Below, piece by piece: positions 17,394 to 59,373 of a stretch of DNA of 64,000 nucleotides (position 1 is the first letter of the stretch; each line of letters begins with the position of its first letter). This stretch comes from Candidatus Eiseniibacteriota bacterium (lineage in GTDB: Bacteria > Eisenbacteria > RBG-16-71-46 > DASYSL01). The position numbers and the translations under genes are program-made. The notes beneath the pieces were generated by a model. That model was not told the origin of the DNA, made no database searches, and was given only the letters and a program-made list of their open reading frames with translations. Location: positions 2,284 through 66,283 of the forward strand of contig JANPEF010000008.1 of NCBI GenBank assembly GCA_031431875.1, given 5' to 3'.

Positions 17394-18113
17394 ATGCGCG
17401 TGCTCGTGGTCGTTCCCGCGTTCAACGAGGAGGAGAGCCTGCCCGCGATCCTCGCCGAGATCCGCGCCACGGCGCCGGGCGTCGACGTCGTGGTCGTCGA
17501 CGACGGCTCGCACGACGGCACCCAGGTGGCGGCGCGTGCCGCCGGCGTGCCCGTGCTCGTGTTGCCGGTGAACCTGGGCGTGGGGGCGGCGCTGCAGACC
17601 GGGTTCCTCTACGCGCTCGAGGAGGGCTACGACGTCGCGGTCCAGCTCGACGCCGACGGGCAACACGATCCCGCCGACCTTCCGGCATTGTTGGCGCCGA
17701 TCGCGGCGGGGCGGGCCAACCTGTCGATCGGATCGCGTTACGTGGCGGGCGCCAGCGGTTATCATGCGCCCTTGCTGCGCCGCCTCGGCATGGTGCTGTT
17801 CTCGGCGCTGGCGACGGCCGTCACCGGACGGCCGCTCAAGGACACGACATCGGGCTACCGCGCCTACGATCGGAGTGTGATGGCGCTGTGCAAGACGGAG
17901 TTCCCGCAGGACTTTCCCGACGCGCCGCTGCTCATCCAGGTGGCGCGCGCCGGCTACATCCTCGAGGAGGTCCCGGTCGCAATGCGGCCGCGCACGCGCG
18001 GAACGTCGTTCTACACCTGGACGCGCTCGCTCTACTACCCGTACAAGACGCTGCTCGCCTCGCTGGTGCTGCTCCTGCGCCGACCGCCGCAGCGCGCCGG
18101 AGGCTCGTCGTGA
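17394..18113 (+). CDS. GT2 polyprenyl-phosphate glycosyltransferase (DPM1/GtrB-like)
   Basis: MRVLVVVPAFNEEESLPAIL…VVVDDGSHDGT…QLDADGQHDP. Classic GT-A DxD and DPM1-like motifs. Start 1 nt after the flippase stop. Confidence 0.85.
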   Translation: MRVLVVVPAFNEEESLPAILAEIRATAPGVDVVVVDDGSHDGTQVAARAAGVPVLVLPVNLGVGAALQTGFLYALEEGYDVAVQLDADGQHDPADLPALLAPIAAGRANLSIGSRYVAGASGYHAPLLRRLGMVLFSALATAVTGRPLKDTTSGYRAYDRSVMALCKTEFPQDFPDAPLLIQVARAGYILEEVPVAMRPRTRGTSFYTWTRSLYYPYKTLLASLVLLLRRPPQRAGGSS

Positions 18114-18475
18114 CCCGCCCGCAGTTGCTGGCCGCCTTGCTCACGGTCGGTCTTGCCGTGGGCGTGGTCGAGCTGGTGCGCCGCCGCCGGCTGTCCGAGG
18201 AGTACTCGCTGCTGGCGCTCGTCGCCATGGCCGGCGTGCTCGTCGTCGCGTTCTGGACGAGCGGCGTGACGACCTTCACGCACTGGTTCGGCGCGCTCTA
18301 CGAGACGTCGGTCATCTTCTTCTTCGGGCTCGTGTTCGTGATGGTGGCGCTCGTCTACTATGCGGTGAAGCTGACCCGGCTGACGCAGGAGGTGCGGCGG
18401 CTGGCGCAGGAGAGCGCGCTGCTTCGGCTCAAGCTCGAGCGTGCCGAGCGGCGCGACGGGGAGGGCGGACGATGA
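18110..18475 (+). CDS. small DUF2304-like membrane protein (GT2 partner)
   Basis: 121 aa. GTG overlaps the GT2 stop. Three TM helices (…LLTVGLAVGVVELV…LLALVAMAGVLVVAFW…VIFFFGLVFVMVALVYY…) plus a C-terminal amphipathic/coiled tail. Confidence 0.6.
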   Translation: MTRPQLLAALLTVGLAVGVVELVRRRRLSEEYSLLALVAMAGVLVVAFWTSGVTTFTHWFGALYETSVIFFFGLVFVMVALVYYAVKLTRLTQEVRRLAQESALLRLKLERAERRDGEGGR

Positions 18476-19479
18476 ACGCCGGCAAGCTCAAGGTCCAGCT
18501 CGCCATCGGCCTGCTGCTGTCGGCGGCGCTGTTGTGGCTGTCGCTGCGCTCGCTCGACCTGCACGAGGTCCTCGCCGCGCTGGCCGGCGCGAACTGGCTG
18601 TGGTTCCTGCCGATCTGCCTGTTGACGCTGCTCTCGTTCTGGGTGCGCGCGGTCCGCTGGGGCTGGATCCTGCACGGGATCAAGCCGATCCCGGCGCCGC
18701 GCCTGTTCGCCGCGACGATGATCGGCTTTGCCGCCAATAACCTGCTGCCGGCACGCCTGGGCGAGCTGGTGCGCCCCTGGGCGCTGGGCACCAGCGAGCG
18801 CATCTCGCGCTCCTCGGCGTTCGCCACGATCATCGTCGAGCGCGTCGTCGACATGTTCTGCATCCTGCTGCTGTTCGCGGTCGCCCTGGCGCTGCACCCG
18901 TTCCCGAAAATGGTGCAGGACGCCGGTCTCGCCGCGCTGGCCGTCAACGTCTTGCTGCTGGCGCTCCTCATGTCGATCGAACGCAGCCCGGCGCAGGCCG
19001 AGCGCGCGGCGGCGTGGGTGGAGCGGCGCGCCCCTTCGCGGATTGCACCGGCGGCCGCCTCGCTGCTGCGCAACTTCTCGGGCGGCCTGGGCGTGTTCCG
19101 CAACGGGCCGGGCCTGCTGAGGGTCACCATCTACTCGGCGATCATGTACGCCGTGACCGCGCTCGGGATGCAGGGTTGCATGTGGGCGTTCGACATGGTG
19201 GTGCCGTGGTATGCCGGCATCGTCCTGCTGGTCATCACTGCGTTCGGCATGATGATCGCGCCAACGCCGGGATACCTGGGCGCCATCCAGTACGCCTGCG
19301 TGCTGGGCCTGTCGCTGTTCGGCATCGACCGCGCGGTCGGCTTCTCGTTCTCGCTCTACTACCACCTGACGCAGTTCCTGCCCATCACGGTGGTGGGATT
19401 GATCTACCTGGGTCGCGCGGGGATGTCGCTCGGGCAGGTCGCGACCGCAAGCCGGGAGGGGGTGGGGGCCAGCGGCTGA
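18472..19479 (+). CDS. UPF0104 / LPG-synthase-TM-like 'flippase-like' membrane protein
   Basis: 335 aa polytopic protein. ATGA overlap with the previous gene. This family recurs next to DPM1-like GT2 genes. Confidence 0.65.
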   Translation: MNAGKLKVQLAIGLLLSAALLWLSLRSLDLHEVLAALAGANWLWFLPICLLTLLSFWVRAVRWGWILHGIKPIPAPRLFAATMIGFAANNLLPARLGELVRPWALGTSERISRSSAFATIIVERVVDMFCILLLFAVALALHPFPKMVQDAGLAALAVNVLLLALLMSIERSPAQAERAAAWVERRAPSRIAPAAASLLRNFSGGLGVFRNGPGLLRVTIYSAIMYAVTALGMQGCMWAFDMVVPWYAGIVLLVITAFGMMIAPTPGYLGAIQYACVLGLSLFGIDRAVGFSFSLYYHLTQFLPITVVGLIYLGRAGMSLGQVATASREGVGASG

Positions 19480-19596: not shown

Positions 19597-20814
19597 CTAC
19601 GGGCGACGCACGTGTGCCAGGACCTTTTTCACCGCGAACACCGCATCGTCGACGTCGACGTCGGTCATGCGCGGATAGATGGGCAGCGTGAAGATGCGCG
19701 GGTAGATGCGCTCGGCGACCGGAAAGTCGGCCGCGGCGAAGCCCAGCGTGTCGCGGTAGTAGGGGTGCTTGTGCACCGGGATGAAGTTGACCGTCGTGCC
19801 GATGTTCTCGGCCTTGAGCAGCTCGAGGAAGCGGGCCCGGTCGACGGTGAGGCGCTCGATGTCGAGCTCGATCGTGTACAGGTGCCGCGCGTGGTAGGCG
19901 TCGGGATGCACCCACGGGATCGTGACCTCGGGCACGTCGGCGAACGCCGCGTCGTAGCGCGCCGCGATCGCCTGGCGACGGGCGTCGAAGACCGGGTGGC
20001 GATCGAGCTGGGTCAGGCCCAGCGCGGCCGCGAGGTCGGTCAGGTTGTACTTGAATCCGGGTGCGGTCACCTCGTAGTACCACGAGCCCGCGCTCGAGTA
20101 GCGCTTCCAGGCGTCCTTCGAGATACCGTGCAGCGACAGCACCTGCGCCAGTGCCATGAAGTCGGCGTCGGCCGAGACGAGGCAGCCGCCCTCACCGGTG
20201 GTGATGTTCTTGATGGCGTAGAACGAGAAGCACGTCGCGTCGGCCAGCGTGCCGACGGGGCGGCCGTGCCAGCGGGCGCCGAACGAGTGGGCCGCGTCGG
20301 CGAGCAGGTGCAGCTTGTGGCGGAGGCACAGTTCGGCCAGCGCGTCGTAGTCGGCAGGCTGCCCGGCGAAGTCGACGGCGATGATCGCCTTCGTGCGCGG
20401 CGTGATCGCGGCGGCCACGCGCGCCGGATCGAGGTTCTTGGTGCGCGGGTCGACGTCGACCAGCACGACCTTCGCGCCGCAGTGGATGATGACGTTCGCG
20501 GTCGAGACGAAGGTCCAGGTCGAGGTGATCACCTCGTCGCCCGGGCCGATGCCCCAGGCGGCGAGCGCCAGGTGCAGCGCGCCGGTGCACGAGTTGACGG
20601 CGAGCCCCTGCGGCGCGCCGGACAGCTCGGCGATGCGGCGGCCGAGTTCGATCGCCTTCGGTCCGGTCGTCACCCAGCCGGATTCGAGCGTCTCGAGCAC
20701 GGCGGCCTTCTCAGCCTCGCCGACGGACGGCAGCGCGACGGGCAGGAAGGTTTCACGGACGGGGGCGCCGCCCTCGGCGGCGAGCGGGGCGGACAGGTCG
20801 CGGGGGTCGCTCAT
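19597..20814 (-). CDS. DegT/DnrJ/EryC1/StrS-family PLP-dependent sugar aminotransferase
   Basis: 405 aa from ATG 20814 (MSDPRDLSAP…). Contains …LESGWVTTGPKAIELGRRIAEL… and …CFSFYAIKNITTGEGG… (PLP-lysine motif). The rest of the 794-aa track ORF is the upstream gene plus a read-through. Confidence 0.9.
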   Translation of the reverse strand: MSDPRDLSAPLAAEGGAPVRETFLPVALPSVGEAEKAAVLETLESGWVTTGPKAIELGRRIAELSGAPQGLAVNSCTGALHLALAAWGIGPGDEVITSTWTFVSTANVIIHCGAKVVLVDVDPRTKNLDPARVAAAITPRTKAIIAVDFAGQPADYDALAELCLRHKLHLLADAAHSFGARWHGRPVGTLADATCFSFYAIKNITTGEGGCLVSADADFMALAQVLSLHGISKDAWKRYSSAGSWYYEVTAPGFKYNLTDLAAALGLTQLDRHPVFDARRQAIAARYDAAFADVPEVTIPWVHPDAYHARHLYTIELDIERLTVDRARFLELLKAENIGTTVNFIPVHKHPYYRDTLGFAAADFPVAERIYPRIFTLPIYPRMTDVDVDDAVFAVKKVLAHVRRP

Positions 20815-21812
20815 GCGCGCAGCGTCTCCGCAAGGGTGAGGACGTTCGAGTAACGGGCGGCGCGGAAGTCGGCTTCGGGTCGGTCGCGGAGCCAGGCGGC
20901 GATCTCGTCGACGCCGGACTCGACGGTGCGGCTCGCGTGGAAGCCGAGTTCGCGCTCGATGCGGGCGAACGACACGCGGTACGAACGCGGGTCGCGCGTT
21001 TCCTGGACGGTGAGACGGGTGCCCGGGAAGCGCGCGGCGATGCGCTCGCCGAGGTCGGCGATGCGGAGGTTCAAGGCATCCGAGCCGACGTTGAACGTCT
21101 CGCCGGCCGCGGCCGGGTGATCGAGACCGAGGACGACGGCGCGGGCCACGTCGTCGACGTGCACCTGCGGGCGCCACTGGTCGCCGCCGTGCACCTCGAC
21201 GATGCCGTCGCGCAGGGCGCGCGCGGTGAGCAGGTTGACGACCAGGTCGAAGCGCATGCGAGGTGCTGTGCCGAACACGGTCGCGAAGCGGAGCACGCAG
21301 GGCGCCTCGGCGCTCGACGGGTGCGCGGCGATCAGGGCCTCGGCCTCGAGATGTGTCTCGGCGTACAGCGACAGCGGTGCCGTCGGCGAGAGTTCGTCGA
21401 GCCAGGTGTCGCCGGCGGCGCCGTAGACCGAGCAGGTCGAGGCGAAGACGAGCCGGCGCAGGCCGGCCGCGGTGGCGGCGGCGAGGACGTGACGCGTGCC
21501 CTCGACGTTGACCGCGCGCGTGAGCACGGGGTCGAGCGCGCAGGCCGGGTCGCCGACCAGGCGCGCCAGGTGGACGACGCCGTCGCAGCCCTCGGCCGCA
21601 CGACGGACGGCGTCGGCGTCGCGCACGTCGCCGCGCACGAGGGTGAAGCCGGGGTGGTCGCGCAGCGCGGCGACCGAGTCGTCGGCGAAGAGGAACGAGT
21701 CGAACCCGCGGACGGCGTGACCGTCGGCGAGCAGCAGGGCCGCGACCCTCGTCCCGACGTAGCCGGCGACGCCGGTGACGAGCACGGGACGAGCGGAGAG
21801 GGGAGCGGGCAA
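20811..21812 (-). CDS. NAD-dependent epimerase/dehydratase (extended SDR)
   Basis: …PVLVTGVAGYVGTRVAALLL… (Rossmann GxxGxxG) and …YAETH… (YxxxK-type). Start chosen as TTG 21812 with AGGA 5 nt upstream; an alternative GTG lies at 21779. Stop overlaps the DegT start (ATGA). Confidence 0.75.
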   Translation of the reverse strand: MPAPLSARPVLVTGVAGYVGTRVAALLLADGHAVRGFDSFLFADDSVAALRDHPGFTLVRGDVRDADAVRRAAEGCDGVVHLARLVGDPACALDPVLTRAVNVEGTRHVLAAATAAGLRRLVFASTCSVYGAAGDTWLDELSPTAPLSLYAETHLEAEALIAAHPSSAEAPCVLRFATVFGTAPRMRFDLVVNLLTARALRDGIVEVHGGDQWRPQVHVDDVARAVVLGLDHPAAAGETFNVGSDALNLRIADLGERIAARFPGTRLTVQETRDPRSYRVSFARIERELGFHASRTVESGVDEIAAWLRDRPEADFRAARYSNVLTLAETLRA

Positions 21813-22024
21813 GGACGTCCTCGCAGGTGGAGGGGCGCGATCGGTGGTCGGTCGCGCCGACACGAAAACGCTGCGCCGAAGGGCGCAGCGACAGAATGAT
21901 GGTAATCGGCGGGATGCTTGCGCGACAAGGGCCATGGCACGGGCCCCGTCCCGCGCGGCGATCACGCGCCTGACCCCCCACGGGTCGCCGCCCCGGCGGC
22001 GCCCGCGAAGGCGCGAGGTGGACG

Positions 22025-23545
22025 GTGAGTCAGAAGAAGCAATTCGTGCGCGATACGGCGGGGTTCGCCCTCAGCCAGTACCTGTCGCGCTTCGTCCAGC
22101 TGTTCCGCGGCCTGATCGCGGCCCGCATCCTGGGGCCCGCGGCCTACGGCTCGTGGAACGCGCTGCTGCTGGTGCTCGACTACGGGATCCTGACGCAGCT
22201 CGGGCTGCAGCAGGGGCTCGATCAATGTGTGCCCGGCGCGCTGGCCAAGGAGACGCCCGCGCAATCGTCGCGGCTCAAGCAGGGCGGCATCGCCGGGATG
22301 ATCGTGCTGTGGATCCTCTTCGCGGTGGGGACCGCGATCTACCTCGTGGTGCGGCCGCGACGGCTGGCCGAGAGCTGGGGTGCCTGGGGCGTCATGCTCA
22401 TGGTGCTGGCGGTCCTCTTGCAGATGCTCATCTACTACCACGGAACGCTGCTGCGCTCGCACGGCCGGATCGGGGTGGTCAGCAAGACGATGACCATCCA
22501 GGCGATCATCGGCGGCCTGGCCGGGCTCGGCCTGCTGTTCCCGTTCGGGGTGTGGGGCCTGCTGTTCGGCTGGCTCCTTGGACAGGTCGTCGCGCTGATC
22601 TACATTCGCCGCCTCGGCGCGGAGTTCGCGCCGCTGGCGTTCGTGCCCAACGAGCGCACGCGCGAGTTGCTGGCCCACGGCTTCCCGATCTTCCTGTTCA
22701 TGGCGACGACTACGGTCCTCAAGTCGATCGATCGCGTGATGATCCTCAAGTTCCTCTCGGTCGAGGCGCTCGGCTACTACTCGATCGGCCTGATGGGCGT
22801 ATCGATGCTGCTCTACCTGCCCGAGTCGATCGCCTACGTGCTCTATCCCCGCCTGCTCGCCAAGTTTGCCGAGACCGGCGATCCCGACGTGACCGCGCGC
22901 GAGATGGTGCGCCCGCTCGCCGTCGTGGCGTGGGTCATGCCGCTCGTCGTCGGCATCTCCGTGTTCTGGGTGCGCGAACTCGTGCTCCTGTTCCTGCCCC
23001 AGTACCTGCCCGGCGTGCGTTCGCTCGCGCTTCTGCTGTTCGGCGCGCTGGGGCTGGCCCTCTCCAGCATTCCCGCGTTCTATCTCATGTCGATTCGCCG
23101 CCAGGGACAACTCATTCCGCTGGCCCTGCTGACGATCGCGGTCGAGGTCGGACTCATCCTCTTGTTCCTCCACTCCGGCGCGAAGATCGAGGGCGTGGCG
23201 CTGGCGGTGAGCCTCGGTTCCGCCATCTACGGGCTGGGGCTGCTCGGCTTCGCCGCGATGCACGCCGAGTCGACGACCCGGGCGCGCGTGGGCTTCGTGC
23301 TCAAGAGCGCGCTGCCGTCGATCCTCACCGTGCTGATCTGCGTCGGGCTCTACCTCGGCCTGCGACCACGGCTCGAGCCGTTCGCCTCGGAACTCGTGAT
23401 CTCGTTCCTGCTGAGCCTGCTGTTCGTGCTCTTCTACCTGCTGCTCGCGCGGCGGCTCAAGCCGCGCACGGGCGTGGTCGCCATGCTCCGGGAATCGAGC
23501 TGGCCGTTTGCGCGGATGCTGGCCGGGGTGTGGTCGCGTGATTAG
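22025..23545 (+). CDS. second Wzx-like polysaccharide flippase (MOP superfamily)
   Basis: 506 aa, ~12 TM helices, GTG start. Divergent from the DegT/SDR pair. Confidence 0.75.
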   Translation: MSQKKQFVRDTAGFALSQYLSRFVQLFRGLIAARILGPAAYGSWNALLLVLDYGILTQLGLQQGLDQCVPGALAKETPAQSSRLKQGGIAGMIVLWILFAVGTAIYLVVRPRRLAESWGAWGVMLMVLAVLLQMLIYYHGTLLRSHGRIGVVSKTMTIQAIIGGLAGLGLLFPFGVWGLLFGWLLGQVVALIYIRRLGAEFAPLAFVPNERTRELLAHGFPIFLFMATTTVLKSIDRVMILKFLSVEALGYYSIGLMGVSMLLYLPESIAYVLYPRLLAKFAETGDPDVTAREMVRPLAVVAWVMPLVVGISVFWVRELVLLFLPQYLPGVRSLALLLFGALGLALSSIPAFYLMSIRRQGQLIPLALLTIAVEVGLILLFLHSGAKIEGVALAVSLGSAIYGLGLLGFAAMHAESTTRARVGFVLKSALPSILTVLICVGLYLGLRPRLEPFASELVISFLLSLLFVLFYLLLARRLKPRTGVVAMLRESSWPFARMLAGVWSRD

Positions 23546-29448: not shown

Positions 29449-29449
29449 C

Positions 29450-31417: not shown

Positions 31418-31456
31418 GCCGCAAGCGGCACTCCTATCTGCAAGTGGGAACGGCAC

Positions 31457-31485
31457 TTGCGTGCACAGTCTGTCTCCGCTAGAAT
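31457..31485 (+). promoter_or_regulatory. sigma70-like internal promoter candidate
   Basis: TTGCGT (31457-31462), 17-nt spacer, TAGAAT (31480-31485). Lies in the 125-nt gap between asnB and the double-GT4 gene. Confidence 0.3.
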
Positions 31486-45985: not shown

Positions 45986-45987
45986 GC

Positions 45988-48547: not shown

Positions 48548-48960
48548 GGCCGGGGCGCGGAATCGCGCTCGTCCTGCATTGCCTTGAGTTCGCTGGCGAG
48601 GATGCCGACGTCCTGGATCAGCGCCTTGTTCTGCTCCTTGAGGTGCGAGATCACCGTGCTGAAGTGGAACTGGAGCAGCAGGATCATCAGGATCGCGATC
48701 AGGAACAGGAACGCCGGCGGGTAGTAGATGCCCACCAGGTGCGAGAGCTGTTCGATCCCGTGGATGAAGATCGCCGACAAGCACAACACCACGGATGCGA
48801 TGACCCAAAGCAGCGCATACTGCTCGCGCAGCTGCTTCTTGCGCACCAGATTCAGAATGAAGAGCAGGATCCCGAGGCCGGCGAGAAAGACGAAGACGCG
48901 CGTACGGAGCTGGATCCCGACGACCGGAACCGTGGGCAGAGACTGCATGGGAATCAGCAT
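48544..48960 (-). CDS. second DUF2304-like small membrane protein
   Basis: 138 aa. Three TM helices (…[18 protein letters not shown]…[17 protein letters not shown]…[20 protein letters not shown]…) plus a C-terminal coiled tail. Same architecture as 18110..18475. Noticeably lower GC than its neighbours. Confidence 0.6.
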
Positions 48961-52733: not shown

Positions 52734-53743
52734 AGCGCCTCCGGAAACAGGCGGCGCGCACGCGGGCCGACCGCGCGCGTCACCGCCAGCGGCAGGCGCT
52801 GCCAGATGCGCACGGCGAGGTCGAGCGACGACTTCTGTGCCGCGAGCGTCGGCACCTCCTGCGCCGTGCCCAGCGCGTACTGGTAGGCGAGCGGTTGCGG
52901 TGCGGCACCGTATTGCACCTTGAAGCGGTACGTACCCGCTCCGGGTTGGCTGCGCCCGAAGTCGAAGCGCCGCGCGCCGGCGGCGATCGCGCCGCGGACC
53001 GCCTCCCAGTAGAGGAGGTTGTTCGGGCACAGGGCGAAGAAGCGGCGCAGCGACGAGGCCCACGGGTCGGTGATCGTCGCGCCGTGGGCGACGGTGAACA
53101 TGCCGCCGATCGGCCGGTCGCCCAACCAGACCACGAGCAGGTCGGCGTCGTCGCCGTACAGCGCGAGGGCCCGCGCGAAGTAGCGTACCTCCATCGCGGG
53201 CGTGCCGAGGTCGCGCATGTTCTCGGAAAACACGCGGTGGAACGCATCGACCTGGTCGCGGCCGCGCGTGCAGTGCAGGCCGGACTTCTCGGCCTTGCGG
53301 ATCTGGTTCCGGAGCTTCGCGTCGAAGCGCTTCCACTGGGCGTCGGCGTCGTCGGCGAGTTCGAGCACGAGGGTTGCGTGCTCGGGATTGGTCGCGAGTC
53401 CGGGCCACGCGCGGGCCTGGTCGCGCAGCTCGAGCCAGCGAAGGCCCTCGCGTGCCACATCGGCGCGGGCGTGTTCGATCAGCGCCGCCGCGGCCACGTC
53501 ATCCTCGGCGAGGAGTCCGCCCGGGGCCGAGAACAGCGTGTCCTTGCCGCGGAACAGCGGCAGGACGCCGACGATCTGTTCCGCGGCGTCATGCGCCATC
53601 CACCACCGCGCCTCGACACCGAAGAACTCGCTGGTCAGGGTCCGCCACGCGGTGCGCTGAGCGAAGTGGGAGCCGGGGCGGGCGAGGACATAGCTGTCCC
53701 AGGCGGTCGCGTCGGAGGCCGTCAGCGGCCGGACGTCGATCAC
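52730..53743 (-). CDS. FemAB-like (GNAT-fold) protein, EPS-locus type
   Basis: 337 aa from GTG 53743 (VIDVRPLTASDATAWDSYVLARPGSHFAQRTAWRTL…). Size and N-terminus resemble the FemAB-related proteins found in exosortase/PEP-CTERM loci (from memory). The upstream Arg-rich 228 aa were rejected. Confidence 0.65.
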   Translation of the reverse strand: MIDVRPLTASDATAWDSYVLARPGSHFAQRTAWRTLTSEFFGVEARWWMAHDAAEQIVGVLPLFRGKDTLFSAPGGLLAEDDVAAAALIEHARADVAREGLRWLELRDQARAWPGLATNPEHATLVLELADDADAQWKRFDAKLRNQIRKAEKSGLHCTRGRDQVDAFHRVFSENMRDLGTPAMEVRYFARALALYGDDADLLVVWLGDRPIGGMFTVAHGATITDPWASSLRRFFALCPNNLLYWEAVRGAIAAGARRFDFGRSQPGAGTYRFKVQYGAAPQPLAYQYALGTAQEVPTLAAQKSSLDLAVRIWQRLPLAVTRAVGPRARRLFPEAL

Positions 53744-55323
53744 GGCAGGGGCACGGCGGGTCGCTGCGACACTCGCGGCACCGCGGGGCGCTGCGCGACA
53801 CGCTGCGGAACCGTCGAACCGCGGGCAGCGTCCGGCGTCGGCTCCGCCAGCGCGGGCACGAGGCGCAGACCGGCCTCGCGCCGGGCGACCCGGCCGATTG
53901 CGAATACCAGCCCGAACAGGAACCAGACGAAAAACGAGTACGTCCCGTTCCGGAGGTAGTCGATCTTGATCTGATCGATGATGAAGGTGAAGAGCATGAC
54001 CCGGGTGAGCAGGGTCGCCCCCTCGATGTACGTGCCGCTCCCGAGACTGGGAGCGAGGGGCCGGCTCGTCTTCCACAGGCTCCACAGGAACCAGAGGAAG
54101 AACGCCAGGCCGAAGACCCCGACGATGTAGGCGTAGAAGATGTAGACGTTGTGCGGCCAGTACTGCGCGTGCACGCCGATGCGCGGTGCCATGTAGGGGC
54201 CATGACCGATCCAGGGCTCCTTGAGGACGCTCTCGAACGACTGAGCCCAGACCTCGGAGCGCGTCTCGGGAACGACGCCCTTCATCTCGGTCCCGGAGAG
54301 TCGTTCGAGCACCGAGTCCCCATTGGTAAAGTTCGCGACGATGTAGTCGGCGCCGAGGATCAGCGGAATGGCGAGGGCGAAGACCATGACGAGCCGGACG
54401 AAGTTCAGCCGGGTCCGCGACAACCACATCAGGTAGACCGCGCCGACCGAGAACGACAGGAGCGCACCGCGCGTCACGGTGGAGAACAGGCAGAAGAGTG
54501 TCAGTCCCATGATTCCGGCGATCGCGAAGCGCCTCGACTGCGTGGCGGCCCGGGTGAACAGGAACATCTGGAGGAAGAGGTTGAGCGCGCAGTACTCGCC
54601 GAACAGTTCGTAGTCGAGGAAAGTGCTGCCGACGCGCACGCCGCTGCCTTGCCCGCCCACGGTTCCCGCGAACGAGATCCAGCCCGGGATCAGCGTGGCC
54701 CCCGGGTGCCGCTGCTCATACAGCGCGAACAGGCAGACCATCACGCACGAGATGGTCTGGACCAGGAACAGCTTCTTCACGTCCGCCGTCGAGCGGACGA
54801 TGGCGACGACCATGTAGTAGATCAGCAGGTACGTGAGGAAGCCCATGAAGAGCCCCCACGCGACCGAGAAGTACTGCGGCTGCACGTTGTAGAACGAGAT
54901 GCAGTAGGCCATGACGAGCCCGAGGATGGGGACGTCGAGCGGCGTGCGACCGGGCGGCTCGATTCGGCGGGTGCTCACGCGGAACAGCCAGACGATGAAG
55001 ATGAGGAGGATGAACGCGACGTTCGTGTTGCCGTAGCTCGTGCCCTTGGGGAAGGGGAGGAAGAGCGCGGCGAGCATGAGGCCGTCGATCGAGCTGAAGC
55101 GGAAGGCGAGCAGGACGATGATGCCGCCGGCGAACAGCTGGAGCACGCGGGCGTCGGGCTCGAGGAACTGCATGCCGGCGAGAATCGCCGCGGCCAGAAT
55201 GGCGGCGAACGTGAACGTCCGTCCGGCGAACCCTTCCGGGAATCGCCGTCCGATCGTCGCTCCCAGGGACTTCAGCGCGTCGAACACAGACACCGTGCTC
55301 CCCCGGGGGCCGTGGCGGCCCAC
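53740..55323 (-). CDS. O-antigen ligase / Wzy-like polymerase family membrane protein
   Basis: 527 aa, ~12 TM helices (…FILLIFIVWLFRVSTRR…VYLMWLSRTRLNFVRLVMVFALAIPLI…). GTG 55323 lies 4 nt after the upstream GT2 stop; an alternative GTG at 55293 has a GGGGGAG RBS. Lower-GC, hydrophobic coding region. Confidence 0.75.
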   Translation of the reverse strand: MGRHGPRGSTVSVFDALKSLGATIGRRFPEGFAGRTFTFAAILAAAILAGMQFLEPDARVLQLFAGGIIVLLAFRFSSIDGLMLAALFLPFPKGTSYGNTNVAFILLIFIVWLFRVSTRRIEPPGRTPLDVPILGLVMAYCISFYNVQPQYFSVAWGLFMGFLTYLLIYYMVVAIVRSTADVKKLFLVQTISCVMVCLFALYEQRHPGATLIPGWISFAGTVGGQGSGVRVGSTFLDYELFGEYCALNLFLQMFLFTRAATQSRRFAIAGIMGLTLFCLFSTVTRGALLSFSVGAVYLMWLSRTRLNFVRLVMVFALAIPLILGADYIVANFTNGDSVLERLSGTEMKGVVPETRSEVWAQSFESVLKEPWIGHGPYMAPRIGVHAQYWPHNVYIFYAYIVGVFGLAFFLWFLWSLWKTSRPLAPSLGSGTYIEGATLLTRVMLFTFIIDQIKIDYLRNGTYSFFVWFLFGLVFAIGRVARREAGLRLVPALAEPTPDAARGSTVPQRVAQRPAVPRVSQRPAVPLP

Positions 55324-55327: not shown

Positions 55328-56005
55328 TCACACCAGCCCGAATCGCTTGGCGAACAGGAAGGAGAGGTTCAGCCACCCGTCGCGCCACTTCTGCAGCTTC
55401 ACCTCGCCGATGCGCGGCCGGTAGTCGATGCCGAACTCGGCGAAGCGGGGGCCCAGCTTCTCGATCGCCTCGATCTTGATCTCCTCGCTGAGTGGCATGC
55501 CGTCGGAGGTCAGCTTGAGGCGGGGGAGGACCGAGCGGCGGAAGACCCACATCCCGGACTGCGAATCCTTGAGCGGCCGGAACCACAGGAGGCCGGTGGC
55601 GACCGTGAGCACGAAGTTCCCCACCTTGTTGGTGAAGTTCATCGCGGAAGGGTTGCGCAGCGGAAAGCGGGCGCCGGAGACGAAGTCGAGCTGCCGGTCC
55701 TCGAGCTGGTCGACGAGGAGGGAGATCTCGTCGGCCGGGTACGTCCCGTCCCCGTCGAGGGTGGCGATGATGTCGCAGGTCGCGGCCGGAAGTCCCGCCT
55801 GGTAGGCCGCCCCGTAGCCCTTGCGGGGCTGGAAGACGACCTTGGCCCCGAGCGAGCGGGCCACCTCGGCGGTGCGGTCGGTCGAGTTGTTGTCCACGAC
55901 CACGACCTCGTCCACGTAGGAGGGCATGCCCTCGAAGACGTGGCGGATTCCGTCCTCCTCGTTGTAGCAGGGGATGACGACGCTGATCGACAGGCCACGG
56001 TGCAT
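55328..56005 (-). CDS. GT2 polyprenyl-phosphate glycosyltransferase (DPM1-like, no C-terminal TM)
   Basis: 225 aa; MHRGLSISVVIPCYNEEDGI…VVVDNNSTDRT…TLDGDGTYP…. First gene of the 14-gene minus-strand operon. Confidence 0.85.
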   Translation of the reverse strand: MHRGLSISVVIPCYNEEDGIRHVFEGMPSYVDEVVVVDNNSTDRTAEVARSLGAKVVFQPRKGYGAAYQAGLPAATCDIIATLDGDGTYPADEISLLVDQLEDRQLDFVSGARFPLRNPSAMNFTNKVGNFVLTVATGLLWFRPLKDSQSGMWVFRRSVLPRLKLTSDGMPLSEEIKIEAIEKLGPRFAEFGIDYRPRIGEVKLQKWRDGWLNLSFLFAKRFGLV

Positions 56006-56284: not shown

Positions 56285-57132
56285 CTTCGCACGTTGTCTG
56301 GAGGTGCCTGATCGCGGATTCGGGGAAGGGACCGGGCCGCGGGCCTTCAATGGATTGATGGTATCAAATCGGTTTCCCTTCGCTGACCTCCTGGGCCTTG
56401 GCCCACGTCGCACCGTACGAATCGCGTTTCCGTCGAGCCCCGACCCTCATTGACCGATCACTCCATTTGAGGTTTCGGGCAGTCCTCCCCCAGGGCGCGG
56501 ATTTCGCGGATACCCCGCAAGGGGCAACCGCACCGACAGTTCCGGGAGAGGACATTCATTGAGTCCTCGGCGTCCTGCAATCAATCGGGCGCCGCATTCC
56601 GGTCGATGTCCGGCCGTCGGGCCTATTCAATCCGCGACGCTGTCCGCGCACTGGAGCCGTCATCGTGTCCCCCGCCATTTCTTCGAGCGCGATCACGCAG
56701 GCAGGCATTTCGCCCCGCGATGGGGTACACTCATCTCTGGCGGCCGCACCGAAGCGTACGGCCGCGATCGAAACCGGAATCCACCCCCTTGGCGTGGGTC
56801 CCTCTTGCGATGCTCCTGCCGATTCTCGCGGCCCTGCCCTCGGCCATGCGAATGGAGCGGTGTTGTTCACGGTCGAGGTTCCTACGACTCCTCCCCTGCC
56901 GTCGGTCGCGCCCGTCCTCGGATCCGAGGACGCGTCGGACATCCACCTGCAGGTGCTCGACCTGCGGAGTGGCTCCGCGTTTGCCCATGCGAACGGACAT
57001 TCCCGCGATCACGCGCACGGCAATGCGCGTCGGCGCGACGAGTTCGGCCTGGGGGAAGTCGCCACGTTCTTGAGCGCCCCGCTGGTCAGCACCGGCTTCG
57101 CCAGCAGCTCGACCGTGCCGTCGGCGATCCCC

Positions 57133-57780
57133 ATGCGGCCCACCGCGGTCCCCGCGATCCCCATGCTCCCGACGGGGTTGTATGCGCACATCGGCAAACG
57201 CGTGCTCGACCTCGCCGGCGGCGTCCTCGCGATCGTGCTGGCGGGACCGGTGATCCTGCTCGCTGCACTGGCGGTCAAGCTCACCTCGCGTGGCCCTGCG
57301 TTCTACACGTCGACGCGCCTGGGGAAGGATGGCCGGCCGTTCACCTTCCTCAAGCTGCGCTCGATGTACGTCGGCGCCGATGCCGAGCGCGCCCGGCTGA
57401 TGCATCTCAATGAAGTCGACGGCCCGGTGTTCAAGCTGCGCCGCGATCCGCGCGTCACCCGCGTCGGCCAGTGGCTGCGCTCGAGCTCGGTCGACGAACT
57501 CCCCCAGTTGCTCAACGTGCTCAAGGGCGACATGAGCCTGGTCGGCCCGCGTCCGCCGCTGCCCGAGGAGGCCGAGCGCTACGAGGCCTGGCAGCGCCGC
57601 CGTCTCGACGTGAAGCCCGGGATCACCTGCCTGTGGCAGGTCTCGGGCCGCAGCCGTCTCAGCTTCGAGGAGTGGATGCGGCTTGACCTCGAGTACATCC
57701 GGCGGCAGTCTCTCGCCACCGATCTCTGGATCCTGGTCCGGACGATCCCGGCGGTGCTCTCGCGCGAGGGTGCCTACTGA
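57133..57780 (+). CDS. small monotopic phosphoglycosyltransferase (bacterial sugar transferase domain, PglC/WbaP C-terminal-like)
   Basis: Conserved domain …RVLDLAGGVLAIVLAGPVILLAALAVKLTSRGPAFY…KLRSMY…PGITCLWQVSGRSRLSFEEWMRLDLEYI…. Start taken as ATG 57133; ATG 57163 is also possible. The ORF track extends it to GTG 56665 with a 156-aa Ser/Ala/Pro-rich region lacking a TM helix (see findings). Confidence 0.75.
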   Translation: MRPTAVPAIPMLPTGLYAHIGKRVLDLAGGVLAIVLAGPVILLAALAVKLTSRGPAFYTSTRLGKDGRPFTFLKLRSMYVGADAERARLMHLNEVDGPVFKLRRDPRVTRVGQWLRSSSVDELPQLLNVLKGDMSLVGPRPPLPEEAERYEAWQRRRLDVKPGITCLWQVSGRSRLSFEEWMRLDLEYIRRQSLATDLWILVRTIPAVLSREGAY

Positions 57781-57813
57781 CCGTGCGGGGCCCGGCCCGC
57801 GCGTGAGGAGCGC

Positions 57814-59373
57814 GTGGACCAAACTCTCGGCAGCAGCCAACCCAGCGGAATGCAGGCCCCGCCGCAAGGGCGTCGGGGCCTTTGGCTTGCCCTGATCGCC
57901 GCGGCGATCCTGCGCTTCTACCATCTCGGCACCCAGAGCCTGTGGATCGACGAGATCTTCACCTGGCAGACGGCCTCGCCGACCGCGCCGCTGACCTGGC
58001 TCGACATCGTCTCCAACCTGCATGGCCCGCTCGTCTCCGTGTTCGCGCACTTCTGGATGCGCGCCTTCGGCGAGTCGGAGTTCATCCTGCGCCTGCCCAT
58101 GGCGGTGGCCTCGATCGCACTCGTTCCCGTCGTCGCGGGGCTGGCGCGCCGCGCCGTCGGGCCCGCGGCGTCCCTGCCGGCGGCGTGGCTCGTCGCACTC
58201 TCCCCGTTCGTCACCTGGTACGGGCAGGAGTTCCGCGGCTACATCTTTGCCATACTCTTTGCCGCGCTCGCGCTGTCGGCGCTCTTCGACTGGCGGGGGA
58301 GCGGCATGCGCCGCGACTTCGTCGCGCTCGTCGCGTGGACCGTCCTCGCCACCTGGTCGAACATGAGCGGCGTGCTGCTCGTGCCCGTGTTCGCCGGTGC
58401 CCTGCTGCTGGCGCGCCCGCCGGGCCGCGGTCGCTTCGCGCCGACGCTGCTTTTCCTCGGATGCGTCGGGCTCGCCCTTTCCCCGTGGATCGCCTACCAC
58501 TTCGTCCAGCGCATGGGCTGGCTCGAGTGGGGGCGGCTGGTGCCGGGGCGCCCGCCCGAGGCCGCGGGGGCGCCGCTGCGCGGGGAGCTCACGTTCTCGT
58601 GGCTCGGCATCCCGTTCACGTTCTACGTCTTCGCGGTGGGCTACACGCTGGGCCCGAGCCTGCGCGACCTGCGCTCGGGCGGCGGGCTCGACGTCCTCGT
58701 GCCGTTCCTGCCCGGCATCCTCGCCGCGCTGCTGACCTTCGGCACGCTGGCGGTGGTCGGCGTGGTCGCGCTGGCGGATCGCGCGCGGAGATTCGAGCGC
58801 GGCGTGATCCTCGGGGCGATCCTCGTGCCGATCGCCGTCGTGTCGTACTTTGCACTGTCGAACTTCAAGGTGTTCAACCCGCGCTACGTCGCGATCGGCG
58901 CGCCGGCGTTCTTTGTGCTGCTCGCCGCCGGCTTCACCGCCCTGTCACCGCTGGCCCGGCGGCTCACCGCCCTGGCCGTGCTCGGGTTGTTCACCCTCTC
59001 GCTCTTGCACCACTATCACGGAGCGCGTTACGCGAAGGACGACTTCAAGCGCGCCGTGCACGCGCTCGAGCTGGTGGTCGCTCCGCAGGACGTGATCATC
59101 GCGGCCGGCAACTTCTCGCCGCTCGAGTTCTACTGGCGCGACCACGAACCGACGCCGGTCGTGTACTGGGCGGGGTACGCGCGGGACGCGCGGATGGAGG
59201 AGAAGTTCCTGCCCCTGCGCAACCCGGCCGGAGCGACCTGGCTGGTCGTCTCGCGGACGCAGGAACTCGACCCCGAGGGGCGCCTCGAGCGCTGGGTTCA
59301 AGCCACGTGGGGCGCGCCGATCGGGGTCTTTCCGGGGGTGCGCGTTTATCGGATCGCCGCTCCGGTGCGCTAG
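57814..59373 (+). CDS. GT39/GT83 (ArnT/PMT_2)-like polytopic membrane glycosyltransferase
   Basis: 519 aa. First-loop motif …YHLGTQSLWIDEIFTWQTA…, the DE motif of PMT/ArnT-type GT-C enzymes. ~11 TM helices. An alternative start ATG lies at 57850. Confidence 0.8.
   Translation: MDQTLGSSQPSGMQAPPQGRRGLWLALIAAAILRFYHLGTQSLWIDEIFTWQTASPTAPLTWLDIVSNLHGPLVSVFAHFWMRAFGESEFILRLPMAVASIALVPVVAGLARRAVGPAASLPAAWLVALSPFVTWYGQEFRGYIFAILFAALALSALFDWRGSGMRRDFVALVAWTVLATWSNMSGVLLVPVFAGALLLARPPGRGRFAPTLLFLGCVGLALSPWIAYHFVQRMGWLEWGRLVPGRPPEAAGAPLRGELTFSWLGIPFTFYVFAVGYTLGPSLRDLRSGGGLDVLVPFLPGILAALLTFGTLAVVGVVALADRARRFERGVILGAILVPIAVVSYFALSNFKVFNPRYVAIGAPAFFVLLAAGFTALSPLARRLTALAVLGLFTLSLLHHYHGARYAKDDFKRAVHALELVVAPQDVIIAAGNFSPLEFYWRDHEPTPVVYWAGYARDARMEEKFLPLRNPAGATWLVVSRTQELDPEGRLERWVQATWGAPIGVFPGVRVYRIAAPVR

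Follow-up and report, generated by a model that had tools for sequence, protein, structure and literature searches.

Candidate three-component glycosylation modules in a polysaccharide locus of an uncultured Candidatus Eisenbacteria bacterium

Introduction

A three-component design for periplasmic glycosylation is known from GtrB/GtrA/Gtr*, GacI/J/K/L, the Arn system and mycobacterial PpgS/Rv3632/Rv3779. The paradigms in the literature are GacI/GacJ/GacK(Wzx)/GacL and PpgS/Rv3632, in which GacJ and Rv3632 stimulate their partner GT2 enzymes. Published three-component systems also include MOP/MATE flippases, GT-C enzymes that bear a carbohydrate-binding module, and epimerases that work on the lipid-linked sugar in the cytoplasm.

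Here, a locus of an uncultured Candidatus Eisenbacteria bacterium is described that contains four GT2 genes (GT2_1 to GT2_4) and six GT-C genes (GTC_1 to GTC_3, parA, parB and parC). An initial annotation had taken this concentration to imply multiple periplasmic glycosyl additions, and could not place the arrangement in a described system.

Locus setting and gene content

Genes were called by GC3 analysis in the window (the whole stretch of 64,000 nt analyzed), which has a G+C content of about 70%. Strands are given as + or -. The region is best read as the organism's principal locus for a surface polysaccharide or exopolysaccharide. The surrounding cluster is of the Wzx/Wzy/PCP/Wza type and XrtA/PEP-CTERM-like, without an exosortase. 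Its export, amidotransferase, FemAB-like and deacetylase genes have their best matches in XrtA/PEP-CTERM exopolysaccharide families.

The Wzx/Wzy/PCP/Wza pathway of the initial annotation was recovered in all its parts. The Wza-like protein (10107-11030, +; Poly_export and SLBB domains), the chain-length determinant/PCP (11044-12414, +) and a tyrosine-autokinase-like P-loop protein (12411-13274, +) have as best NCBIfam matches the XrtA/PEP-CTERM export protein, the EpsF/XrtA chain-length determinant and the XrtA-associated tyrosine kinase, respectively, all below cut-off. Two MOP-family flippases are present. Wzx1 (15773-17392, +; Polysacc_synt_3, Polysacc_synt, MurJ, MatE) is located immediately upstream of GT2_1, a position kept in the relative L070. 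Wzx2 (22025-23545, +; Polysacc_synt, Polysacc_synt_3) is located immediately upstream of parA and parB, and is found with parB in other Eisenbacteria loci. A Wzy-type polymerase with an O-antigen-ligase-like domain (53740-55323, -; Wzy_C 4.5e-14) and a priming polyprenyl-phosphate sugar-1-phosphate transferase (56665-57780, +; Bac_transf 1.2e-63, TIGR03025 EPS_sugtrans 1.5e-83) were also identified.

A cytoplasmic assembly and modification block (28369-40535, all genes +, assigned by Pfam) consists of a GT4 (28369-29448), an AsnB-type amidotransferase (29450-31417), a double GT4 (31542-33812), an AMP-ligase-like gene (33809-35281), an ADH/GFO fusion (35278-37494), a second AsnB-type gene (37504-39423) and a further GT4 (39420-40535). 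Best NCBIfam matches in this block include the XrtA/PEP-CTERM amidotransferase and the stp2 glycosyltransferase, below cut-off. A sugar 4-aminotransferase (19597-20814, -; DegT_DnrJ_EryC1 4e-119), with PseC and ArnB as best NCBIfam matches, lies beside an SDR dehydratase/epimerase (20811-21965, -). A nucleotide-sugar dehydrogenase is encoded at 62395-63747.

A SAM-dependent methyltransferase (41989-42675, -; Methyltransf_11 1.6e-22) is the last gene of the minus-strand operon. A candidate lipid-sugar epimerization cassette comprises an SDR (45095-45985, -), a GMC/FAD oxidoreductase (45988-47595, -), both assigned by Pfam/NCBIfam, and a 145-aa protein (47592-48029, -); neither a signal peptide nor a convincing membrane anchor was found in the three proteins (one hydropathy window in the GMC protein). 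The hexapeptide-repeat protein (48026-48535, -; Hexapep 1.7e-8) resembles WcaF/WbbJ/NeuD-type acetyltransferases. A polysaccharide-deacetylase-family enzyme (48974-49843, -; Polysacc_deac_1 and DUF3473), predicted to be cytoplasmic with no signal peptide, scores 226 bits against the XrtA-system deacetylase model TIGR03006 (cut-off 276). The FemAB-family, GNAT-fold acyl(aminoacyl)transferase (52730-53743, -; Acetyltransf_6, FemAB) scores 255.3 bits against TIGR03019, XrtA/PEP-CTERM FemAB (cut-off 260.35). Judged by these matches, both belong to the XrtA-type gene set.

Candidate donor synthases and their partners

All four GT2 proteins match PF00535 (E 1e-23 to 1e-33) and have DAD/DGD motifs (DADLQHPP/DADGQHDP type). 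Their best NCBIfam matches are polyprenyl-phosphate sugar synthases (PpgS, AglJ, Dol-P-hexose transferase, ArnC and PgfS), with no NCBIfam equivalog cut-off reached by any of the four. These best matches mark them, as initially proposed, as candidate polyprenyl-phosphate sugar synthases and not as enzymes with soluble-substrate signatures; by type they are DPM1/ArnC/GacI-like.

GT2_1 (17364/17406-18113, +; PF00535 3e-25; motif DADGQHDP) is a PpgS/GacI-like candidate, with PpgS as best NCBIfam match (2e-30), followed by AglJ and Dol-P-hexose transferase. GT2_2 (42695-43660, -; PF00535 1.4e-33; motif DADLQHPP) is of the ArnC/GtrB/PgfS type. It matches PgfS (1e-57) and ArnC (9e-46) in NCBIfam over its full length, and two C-terminal TM helices are located at residues 225-259 and 264-295. 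GT2_3 (49840-50658, -; PF00535 1.2e-23) is PpgS/GacI-like (PpgS 1.4e-23) and coupled to parC. GT2_4 (55328-56005, -; PF00535 5.9e-28), the first gene of the minus-strand operon, is AglJ/DPM1-like (AglJ 1e-36, Dol-P-hexose transferase 1e-33), and no TM helix was predicted in it. The top PDB match of both GT2_3 and GT2_4 is the Dol-P-Man synthase 5mlz of P. furiosus (2.6e-12 and 4.5e-13, respectively), followed by ArnC.

Small membrane partners of the GacJ/Rv3632 type are encoded beside two of the GT2 genes, namely DUF2304_1 (18110-18475, +; PF10066 1.7e-19), the partner of GT2_1, and DUF2304_2 (48544-48960, -; PF10066 2.9e-23). The LPG_synthase_TM/UPF0104 'flippase-like' protein (18472-19479, +; PF03706 9e-54) reaches 101.5 bits against the TIGR00374 flippase-like domain (cut-off 43.2). 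The two DUF2304 genes and one UPF0104 gene reported earlier are confirmed by these matches. Overlaps of 4 nt join GT2_1/DUF2304_1/LPG_synthase_TM, parA/parB, GTC_2/GT2_2 and parC/GT2_3/deacetylase.

The GT2_2/GTC_2 pair had been described as arranged exactly like arnC/arnT. This has to be corrected: the E. coli order is arnB-C-A-D-T-E-F, in which arnC and arnT are not adjacent, whereas here GTC_2 lies upstream of GT2_2 and overlaps it.

GT-C membrane proteins

The six large membrane proteins belong to the GT-C class, as originally suggested, and not to transporter families. The PMT_2 family is broad, with ArnT-like lipid and glycan transferases among its members. Three of the six had been called GT39/83-like. 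This holds for GTC_2 (43657-45090, -; PMT_2 2e-11, 44.8 bits), translationally coupled to GT2_2 and with an orthologue of 483 aa in L001, and for GTC_3 (57814-59373, +; PMT_2 1.7e-10, 41.8 bits), which also weakly matches Agl23 and MT1671; both exceed the Pfam cut-off of 26.1 bits. GTC_1 (40532-41992, +), the weakest assignment among the six, stays below it (E 2.4e-3, 18.5 bits) and is linked to PMT_2 through its orthologues, 13 of 29 of which match (best 7.9e-8). Acidic motifs directly follow the first TM helix in these proteins: TTDSDAY within the invariant TTDSDAYLDVA of GTC_1, EQDAY, and WIDEIF in GTC_3.

For parA (23538-25730, +), parB (25727-28321, +) and parC (50655-52733, -), the last taken as reference for the family, no Pfam, NCBIfam or PDB sequence match was obtained. 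The earlier view of three paralogues stands for parA and parC, which by BLASTP are clear paralogues (29% identity over 575 aa, E 2e-13). The more distant parB, which has an extra C-terminal beta-rich domain, was not linked to either by BLASTP and joins them at the profile level (hhalign probability 99.3%, E 3.8e-20). By sequence comparison the three constitute a small GT-C family absent from Pfam and NCBIfam, with about 1,500 representatives among 1.84 billion, mostly from Eisenbacteria and neighboring candidate phyla. The invariant D/H/K/H/K residues of the family are retained in parA. The invariant Asp/His of parC (D150/H154) and D156/D159/H160 of parB open the loop after a TM helix; the motif is predicted to be periplasmic because the loop before that helix is rich in Arg and Lys. 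By structure, parB and parC are most similar to oligosaccharyltransferases, whose donors are PP-linked.

Comparison with related genomes

The full locus is syntenic in one relative, at about 77-81% identity. The loci compared below come from related genomes, and their counts are not independent events. In 21 of 30 Eisenbacteria loci, a DPM1-like GT2 gene is found no more than 6 kb from parC and on its strand; a GT2 gene is immediately beside parC in only 7/30. The tightest neighbor of parC is the deacetylase gene, directly downstream in 32 of 37 loci, and most Eisenbacteria loci retain the hexapeptide-repeat acyltransferase gene upstream of parC. Among loci with enough downstream sequence, DUF2304 is present in 8/8 with a GT2 gene directly after parC and in 0/17 without; GMC and SDR genes occur within 7 kb in 5/8 of the former and 0/17 of the latter (Fisher p 0.001, for loci that are not phylogenetically independent); in L008, a sixth of the eight, they lie just outside this span. 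An apparent GT2-parC fusion in one relative is a frameshift artefact. The pairing of GTC_3 with the priming transferase is kept in L001, L003, L005 and L026.

Around the parC-like genes of the distant Krumholzibacteriota and related candidate phyla lie parB-like, Wzy-like, DPM1-like GT2 and LPG_synthase_TM genes, and compact GT2-MT-GT-C-LPG_synthase_TM cassettes occur. In Krumholzibacteriota loci, LPG_synthase_TM adjoins the parC-like genes and a methyltransferase like that at 41989-42675 lies between the GT2 and parC-like genes. Wzy homologues adjoin parC-like and parB-like genes in Krumholzibacteriota and Latescibacteria (tblastn E 1e-60 to 1e-77).

Interpretation

Several extracytoplasmic glycosyl additions next to a Wzx/Wzy/PCP/Wza pathway, as first claimed, remain the best reading, because the membrane proteins did not fall into unrelated families and the GT2 enzymes did not resemble soluble-substrate ones. 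Enzyme fold and class, conserved motifs, predicted topology, operon structure and cross-genome synteny are shown directly by these data. With moderate confidence, we propose that several three-component modules decorate one polysaccharide.

From family roles and gene order we infer all of the following steps, including the phosphate-linked monosaccharide donors, the GT2-to-GT-C pairings, which proteins act as flippases, what the epimerase and the deacetylase act on, and the acceptor. A repeat unit would be assembled on undecaprenyl phosphate in the cytoplasm by the priming transferase together with several GT4s, with amino, uronic, amidated and acylated sugars expected from the accompanying tailoring enzymes. 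It would then be flipped by Wzx, polymerized by Wzy and exported by PCP/kinase/Wza. In a parallel route, the four GT2 enzymes, two of them helped by DUF2304 proteins, would charge polyprenyl phosphate with single sugars at the cytoplasmic face. One lipid-linked sugar is probably modified further in the cytoplasm; the candidates are the deacetylase, modelled on ArnD/LgmC-like logic, and the GMC-oxidase/SDR pair, modelled on DprE1/DprE2-like logic. Flipping of the polyprenyl-phosphate sugars may fall to the second Wzx-type protein, the LPG_synthase_TM 'flippase-like' protein or both, and on the periplasmic face the six GT-C enzymes would attach the sugars as side branches of the repeat unit or polymer.

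An Arn-like module of DegT aminotransferase, SDR, UDP-sugar dehydrogenase, GT2_2, deacetylase and GTC_2 could instead put a cationic 4-amino sugar on lipid A or LPS core, not on exopolysaccharide. With E. coli ArnB the aminotransferase shares 42% identity (E 9e-95), but it is equally PseC-like and below both cut-offs. Full-length alignment of GT2_2 with E. coli ArnC gives 33% identity, the SDR is similar to the decarboxylase domain of ArnA (E 8e-14), the nucleotide-sugar dehydrogenase is at hand, the cytoplasmic deacetylase is from the ArnD superfamily and GTC_2 is in the PMT_2/ArnT-type family. However, ArnT, ArnD and ArnE/F were unmatched by BLASTP, a formyltransferase domain is absent from the window, and the order is unlike arnBCADTEF, with candidate genes scattered over three operons. 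Besides the close relatives L001 and L069, only one sampled parC locus has a GTC_2-like gene and a weak, non-adjacent GT2_2-like match (25% identity). Such a module is judged unlikely.

It is rather unlikely, too, that parA, parB and parC serve as ligases, alternative polymerases or transferases of oligo- or polysaccharides, moving the Und-PP-glycan made by Wzx/Wzy as a whole onto an anchoring protein or lipid and adding no single sugars from polyprenyl monophosphate. A Wzy-type gene, not GT2, is the most constant neighbor across phyla, GT2 is directly beside parC in only 7/30 Eisenbacteria loci, and the lack of an exosortase in this XrtA/PEP-CTERM-like locus leaves the anchoring step without an assigned gene. 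Yet a WWDxG-type motif was found in none of the six GT-C proteins, ArnT-type enzymes have comparable alpha/beta periplasmic domains, a DPM1-like GT2 and a flippase-like gene accompany the family in two distant clades, and the locus already has a dedicated Wzy. The least probable alternative is that some GT-C enzymes, especially GTC_1 to GTC_3, have secreted or envelope proteins and not the polysaccharide as acceptors, in the manner of actinobacterial PMT/Ppm1 O-mannosylation or archaeal Agl. It draws on the PMT_2 matches ('dolichyl-phosphate-mannose-protein mannosyltransferase'), the weak likeness of GTC_3 to Agl23 and the MT1671 mannosyltransferase, and the AglJ and Dol-P-hexose transferase matches of GT2_4. 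Against it, PMT_2 is broad, all six GT-C genes lie within polysaccharide operons, GTC_3 is paired with a polysaccharide priming transferase in several genomes, candidate substrate proteins are absent among nearby genes, and the conserved beta-rich C-terminal domain of parB recalls carbohydrate-binding modules of glycan-modifying GT-Cs.

Points counted against the decoration of one polysaccharide by several modules were the six GT-C for only four GT2 genes, the GT2 scores below equivalog cut-offs, GT2_4 without TM helix, GTC_1 alone below the Pfam threshold, the 7/30 loci with GT2 beside parC, the deacetylase of the XrtA-type set as the tightest parC neighbor (32 of 37 loci), the origin of the one apparent GT2-parC fusion in a frameshift, the kinship of the genomes behind the locus counts, and the oligosaccharyltransferase matches of parB and parC.

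Comparison with described systems

The arrangement can be placed after all. It fits the three-component design of GtrB/GtrA/Gtr*, GacI/J/K/L, Arn and PpgS/Rv3632/Rv3779, present here in multiple copies within an XrtA/PEP-CTERM-like locus.

Locus organization and gene calls

The G+C content of the window is about 70%, and spurious long ORFs are therefore plentiful; genes were called from third-position GC and tiling. The lipid-linked-sugar genes span five transcription units, in which start/stop overlaps of 4 nt are frequent. Unit 1 (10107-19479, + strand) encodes Wza, PCP, a kinase-like protein, an uncharacterized protein, a phosphodiesterase-family protein, Wzx1 (15773-17392), the donor synthase GT2_1, DUF2304_1 and an LPG_synthase_TM (UPF0104) protein (18472-19479). 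Unit 2 (21965-19597, - strand) consists of SDR and aminotransferase genes. Unit 3 (22025-41992, + strand) begins with Wzx2 (22025-23545), parA, parB, GT4, AsnB and a double GT4, and continues with an AMP-ligase-like gene, an ADH/GFO fusion, a second AsnB, another GT4 and GTC_1. Unit 4 (56005-41989, - strand) carries GT2_4, Wzy, a FemAB-like gene, parC, GT2_3, deacetylase and DUF2304_2, followed by a hexapeptide acyltransferase, a 145-aa protein, a GMC oxidoreductase, an SDR, GTC_2, GT2_2 and a methyltransferase. Unit 5 (56665-59373, + strand) contains a priming phosphoglycosyltransferase and GTC_3. Synteny with a relative extends over both arms of the locus, at about 77-81% identity. The unusual concentration of lipid-linked-sugar machinery described in the initial annotation is real and its class assignments were right, as judged from the profile and PDB matches of the GT2 genes, the PMT_2 matches and the fold models of parB and parC.

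Several further genes are of note. The uncharacterized protein of unit 1 (13279-14571, + strand, 430 aa), encoded after the kinase-like gene within the export operon, has no Pfam or NCBIfam match. It is followed, before Wzx1, by a protein of the type I phosphodiesterase / alkaline-phosphatase superfamily (14568-15776, + strand); both proteins appear to be cytoplasmic. The double GT4 fusion (31542-33812, + strand, 756 aa) comprises two complete GT4 modules, and a 738-aa protein (35278-37494, + strand) joins a zinc-ADH-like domain to a GFO/IDH/MocA oxidoreductase. A class I/II aminotransferase ORF (6574-8202, - strand, 542 aa), with its domain confined to residues 173-525, overlaps a DUF3108 ORF (7634-8791, + strand) by several hundred bases; the true starts of both are probably internal. 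Upstream of this pair are the housekeeping genes rbfA, truB, ribF, pnp and an M16 peptidase. An NYN-domain gene (predicted RNase; 59370-60038, - strand) is located between GTC_3 and a heparinase II/III-like gene (60236-62398, + strand). The latter has no NCBIfam match and no evident N-terminal signal peptide, and is followed 3' by a nucleotide-sugar dehydrogenase and then a further GT4.

Donor synthases

Four DPM1/ArnC/GacI-type GT2 genes are present: GT2_1 (17364-18113, +), GT2_2 (42695-43660, -), GT2_3 (49840-50658, -) and GT2_4 (55328-56005, -). All four match PF00535 in Pfam (E 1e-23 to 1e-33), and their top NCBIfam matches are polyprenyl-phosphate glycosylating enzymes, namely PpgS, AglJ, a haloarchaeal Dol-P-hexose transferase, ArnC and PgfS. 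The closest solved structures to GT2_3 and GT2_4 are the Dol-P-Man synthase of Pyrococcus and then ArnC. The proteins have a GT-A GT2 domain closest to characterised synthases, with the DxD motif found as DAD or DGD. The earlier view that they belong to the polyprenyl-phosphate rather than the soluble-substrate type was borne out at the subfamily level by these top NCBIfam and PDB matches. No NCBIfam equivalog cut-off is reached by any of the four, all scores being far lower, and the sugar can therefore not be named: PpgS, the best match of GT2_1 and GT2_3, gives 84-106 bits against a cut-off of 370, and GT2_2 scores 195 against PgfS (cut-off 500) and 156 against ArnC (cut-off 529).

GT2_2 aligns over its full length with E. 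coli ArnC at 33% identity, carries the motif DADLQHPP and ends in two C-terminal TM helices, as is typical of ArnC/GtrB. GT2_1 and GT2_3 share the motif DADGQHDP and have a DUF2304 gene adjoining or one gene off (DUF2304_1, 18110-18475, +; DUF2304_2, 48544-48960, -). The DUF2304 proteins GacJ and Rv3632 bind and stimulate GacI, a GlcNAc-P-Und synthase, and PpgS, a GalNAc-P-polyprenol synthase, respectively. The hydropathy scan detected a hydrophobic C-terminal helix in GT2_3; a C-terminal hydrophobic stretch is visible in the sequence of GT2_1, under the threshold of the scan. Membrane association or a DUF2304 partner is thus found for GT2_1, GT2_2 and GT2_3, and GT2_4 has neither a membrane helix in the hydropathy scan nor a DUF2304 partner.

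PMT_2-type GT-C proteins

Three of the six GT-C proteins had been described as GT39/83-like. GTC_2 (43657-45090, -) and GTC_3 (57814-59373, +) pass the gathering cut-off of Pfam PMT_2 (PF13231; 26.1 bits) with 44.8 and 41.8 bits. GTC_1 (40532-41992, +) alone stays under it at 18.5 bits, and its assignment holds only through its orthologues, 13 of 29 of which match PMT_2 (best 7.9e-8). The sequence TTDSDAYLDVA is invariant in the GTC_1 family, directly after the first membrane helix; WIDEIF in GTC_3 and EQDAY in GTC_2 occupy the equivalent position, downstream of an Arg-rich N-terminus. PDB sequence searches with the three proteins and with the GTC_1 family profile returned nothing significant, nor was the profile comparison of the GTC_1 family with GTC_3 significant (probability 3.7%).

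The unassigned GT-C family

The remaining three GT-C proteins, parA (23538-25730, +), parB (25727-28321, +) and parC (50655-52733, -), are without a match in Pfam, in NCBIfam and in PDB sequence searches, and show no significant profile match to a named GT-C family (PMT_2/GT39/GT83, DUF6541 and others). The description of the three as paralogs stood for parA and parC, with 29% identity over 575 residues (E 2e-13); parB shows no similarity to either by BLASTP and is related at the profile level only, the alignments of the parB and parC families matching in hhalign with a probability of 99.3% (E 3.8e-20, 601 columns). This comparison aligns RVRSD150SWVH154 of parC with TD156SPD159H160 of parB, in which D150 and H154 (parC) and D156, D159 and H160 (parB) are invariant.

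parB and parC were modelled by AlphaFold2 with the family alignments, with high confidence for both (parC, pLDDT 90.6, pTM 0.93; parB, pLDDT 90.8, pTM 0.91). Against solved GT-Cs the parC model scored 22.5 with STT3B, 19.3 with ArnT, 19.0 with Pmt4, 18.9 with PglB, 18.7 with AglB and 16.8 with both AftA and ALG12; the parB model scored 21.9 with STT3B and 17.8 with AglB, followed by ALG12, AftA and AftD. By their polytopic membrane fold, superimposable on solved enzymes, parA, parB and parC belong to the GT-C superfamily. parB has an extra conserved beta-rich domain at residues of about 690-850, with numerous invariant Asp, Arg and Trp. The helix predictions and the positive-inside rule put the invariant Asp/His after the fifth helix, at the start of a predicted periplasmic loop; the preceding cytoplasm-facing loops are rich in Arg/Lys. 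The Asp/His of parB and parC are candidate counterparts of the catalytic loop acid of GT-Cs. Genes of the family share operons with DPM1-like GT2s, the context of a putative polyprenyl-phosphate-linked donor.

Profile comparisons of the parC family with E. coli ArnT (probability 0.4%) and with the GTC_1 family (2.4%) were not significant; the best local alignment in the latter, itself non-significant and suggestive only, places RVRSD150 over TTD38SD. The parC family has no significant Pfam match, with weak DUF6798 matches in 10 of 40 members (best 1.2e-3). DUF6541 is matched by 5 of 34 parB relatives (best 1.8e-13), the window parB not being among them. The literature search found no paper on DUF6541 and nothing relevant on glycosyltransferases of Eisenbacteria.

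Distribution and gene neighbourhood

Homologues of parA, parB and parC come from metagenomes and lack annotation; the few that carry a name are from Candidatus Eisenbacteria. A scan of one genome per species gave 65 family loci, nearly all in Eisenbacteria MAGs; relatives at 22-30% identity occur in MAGs of Krumholzibacteriota, Latescibacteria and several without a named phylum. The family is small: of 1.84 billion representatives searched in full with the HMM, 342 matched at E<=1e-30 and 1,493 at E<=1e-3. A GT-C glycosyltransferase label can replace 'hypothetical membrane protein' for about 1,500 entries of metagenome catalogues.

In Eisenbacteria, the deacetylase follows parC in 32 of 37 loci. 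A DPM1-like GT2 directly adjoins parC in 7 of 30 loci and lies on the same strand within 6 kb in 21 of 30. DUF2304 is present in all eight loci with a GT2 directly after parC and in none of the 17 without. GMC and SDR genes occur within 7 kb in five of these eight loci versus 0 of 17 (Fisher p 0.001), and just outside this span in a sixth (L008); the loci are related, and these counts are therefore not independent events. In the distant phyla, a parC-like gene is found among parB-like, Wzy-like, DPM1-like GT2, methyltransferase and LPG_synthase_TM genes, and some of these loci have compact cassettes of GT2, methyltransferase, GT-C and LPG_synthase_TM genes. The Wzy-type gene of such loci (L054-L067, from Krumholzibacteriota, Latescibacteria and unclassified MAGs) is better conserved than the GT-Cs, with tblastn E values of 1e-60 to 1e-77, and nearly always adjoins parC-like and parB-like genes. 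This adjacency suggests that the three form a functional trio across phyla.

Apparent gene fusions were also encountered. A 924-aa protein (P0036; positions 10001-12775 of locus L003), considered as a parC-GT2 fusion, was rejected as a frameshift artefact in a long-read Eisenbacteria MAG: when the junction was translated in all frames, parC proved to end normally in frame +1, with its stop codon, and in a fusion a cytoplasmic GT2 would follow a periplasmic domain. An error of the same type probably explains the 590-aa 'Wzy_C + FemAB' gene called in a relative (locus L001, 8232-10004). A 1,502-aa protein (P0115) with a parB-like region and asparagine-synthase domains could be a frameshift fusion or a genuine link of parB to AsnB-type amidotransferases. 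Inferring function from fusions in these MAGs is unsafe.

Tailoring, export and epimerisation genes

In NCBIfam, the export protein, the chain-length determinant, the kinase, the AsnB-type amidotransferase, the FemAB-like protein, the deacetylase (DUF3473) and some of the GT4s match XrtA/PEP-CTERM models best, with all scores under the curated cut-offs (nearest, FemAB-like, 255.3 vs 260.35). No exosortase was found among the scanned window genes, nor in the syntenic region of about 50 kb in the relative. Membership in an XrtA/PEP-CTERM system was rejected on these two grounds. The aminotransferase has 42% identity to ArnB of E. coli, and PseC scores equally.

Neither a signal peptide nor a convincing membrane anchor was seen in the deacetylase, FemAB-like protein, acyltransferase, GMC enzyme, SDR or 145-aa protein when the N-termini were inspected and hydropathy was scanned by a simple method; the GMC enzyme and the acyltransferase each had a hydrophobic window over the scan threshold. 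Nucleotide- or lipid-linked sugars in the cytoplasm are therefore the expected substrates of these proteins.

The 145-aa protein, the GMC-type FAD oxidoreductase and the SDR form a cassette at 45095-48029 (- strand). Among Eisenbacteria loci it is confined to those in which GT2 and DUF2304 genes lie downstream of parC. In the PDB, the GMC enzyme is closest to the large subunit of membrane-bound fructose dehydrogenase, over the N-terminus only. The variable cassette of GT2, DUF2304, 145-aa protein, GMC and SDR suggests a new epimerisation of a lipid-linked hexose on the lines of DprE1/DprE2. Epimerases have recently been described in side-chain glycosylation, and such a route would add to these cases.

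Proposed pathway and alternatives

Three-component periplasmic glycosylation combines a synthase of polyprenyl-P-sugars with a flippase and a GT-C; cytoplasmic enzymes that remodel the lipid-linked sugar are optional. The design is documented for the Gtr, Gac, Arn, mycobacterial arabinan and GalN, and Citrobacter pentofuranose systems, and MOP/MATE-type flippases, auxiliary epimerases and GT-Cs with C-terminal carbohydrate-binding domains are described in this literature. The locus matches this paradigm and is therefore read as a polysaccharide pathway of the Wzx/Wzy-dependent type, to which several modules of this design have been added. The four GT2 synthases would supply the six GT-Cs, with the second Wzx and/or the LPG_synthase_TM protein as putative donor flippases. 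One lipid-linked sugar would probably be modified by the deacetylase, with ArnD-like logic, and by the GMC oxidase and SDR, with DprE1/DprE2-like logic. The analysis shows the enzyme classes, motifs, predicted topology, operon structure and synteny, whereas all substrates are inferred.

The donor of parA, parB and parC could be different, if these proteins handled Und-PP-linked glycans as a ligase or oligosaccharyltransferase. This agrees with their STT3/AglB-like fold, with Wzy as a constant associate and with GT2 genes that do not always adjoin them, but the motif WWDxG is missing and GT-Cs with P-linked donors score almost equally in the structural comparison. That the three represent an unrecognised STT3/AglB-like branch of GT-Cs, acting with Wzy to move an Und-PP-glycan en bloc to a protein or lipid anchor, is in our judgement improbable. 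If true, the family, whose members come mainly from Eisenbacteria, Krumholzibacteriota and Latescibacteria, would be a new bacterial type of ligase or of oligo- or polysaccharyltransferase, and would take care of anchoring in those XrtA-like loci that have no exosortase.

GT2_2 and GTC_2 might instead perform an Arn-like modification of lipid A, and their arrangement had been described as exactly that of arnC/arnT. This comparison failed, as the order in E. coli is arnB-C-A-D-T-E-F; moreover, BLASTP found no homologues of ArnT, ArnD, ArnE/F or the formyltransferase in the window. Membership in the Arn pathway was rejected, with only ArnB-like, ArnC-like and weak ArnA C-terminal-domain matches found. 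The PMT_2-type enzymes might also glycosylate proteins, against which the operon context argues. With six enzymes present, the three alternatives are not mutually exclusive. On the preferred reading, by grafted three-component modules, a candidate phylum represented by metagenomes only builds a surface polysaccharide with an unusually large set of predicted extracytoplasmic, lipid-sugar-dependent glycosyltransferases.

Comparison with known systems

The locus resembles GtrB/GtrA/Gtr* of Shigella and Salmonella O antigens and the three-component system ORF15/ORF14/ORF12 (GT136) of Citrobacter youngae (PMC11127046) in its combination of cytoplasmic synthase, flippase and extracytoplasmic GT-C transfer to a polysaccharide. 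Those systems have one synthase and one GT-C each, whereas four and six are present here, and three of the GT-Cs are from a family without a Pfam or NCBIfam model. Unlike in Gtr, there is no GtrA/SMR-type flippase in the window locus, the candidates being the second Wzx and the LPG_synthase_TM protein. The candidate epimerase pair is a GMC flavoenzyme and an SDR, compared with DprE1/E2 or a lone SDR elsewhere.

GacI/GacJ/GacK/GacL of Streptococcus pyogenes and PpgS/Rv3632/Rv3779 of Mycobacterium tuberculosis likewise combine a GT2 and its DUF2304 activator with a Wzx-type flippase and a GT-C, and in the window Wzx1 is directly 5' of GT2_1. In contrast to these systems, the GT-C partners have no sequence relation to GacL or Rv3779, and the organism is diderm (Wza present).

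With Arn (arnBCADTEF), to which the lipid A amino-sugar systems Lgm of Bordetella and FlmF2/NaxD/FlmK of Francisella are related, the locus shares the logic of GT2 synthase, cytoplasmic deacylation of a lipid-linked sugar and transfer by a GT-C. The deacetylase differs in being of the XrtA-locus type with a DUF3473 domain. We know of no XrtA loci that carry GT-C genes. The XrtA-associated models matched by the export, tailoring and GT4 genes named above are those of XrtA/PEP-CTERM exopolysaccharide loci (the TIGR03006/03007/03018/03019/03027/03108 set of Haft).

In the models, the best structural match of parB and parC is to the GT66 enzymes STT3/AglB/PglB, including the globular domain after the membrane part. 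They differ from these in an identity of 11-15%, in the position of the invariant Asp after the fifth predicted helix instead of the first, and in their context, a polysaccharide operon with DPM1-like synthases. Membership in the OSTs (GT66) was rejected on the missing WWDxG, the expression W[WYF]DxG being absent from all six GT-C proteins. The family without a Pfam or NCBIfam model, with a confident predicted structure and a clear Asp/His motif in the predicted periplasmic loop, is open to classification. Relative to the known systems, the locus is a multiplied and elaborated version of an existing design, which carries a structurally clear GT-C family without a model and a possible new cassette for lipid-sugar epimerisation.
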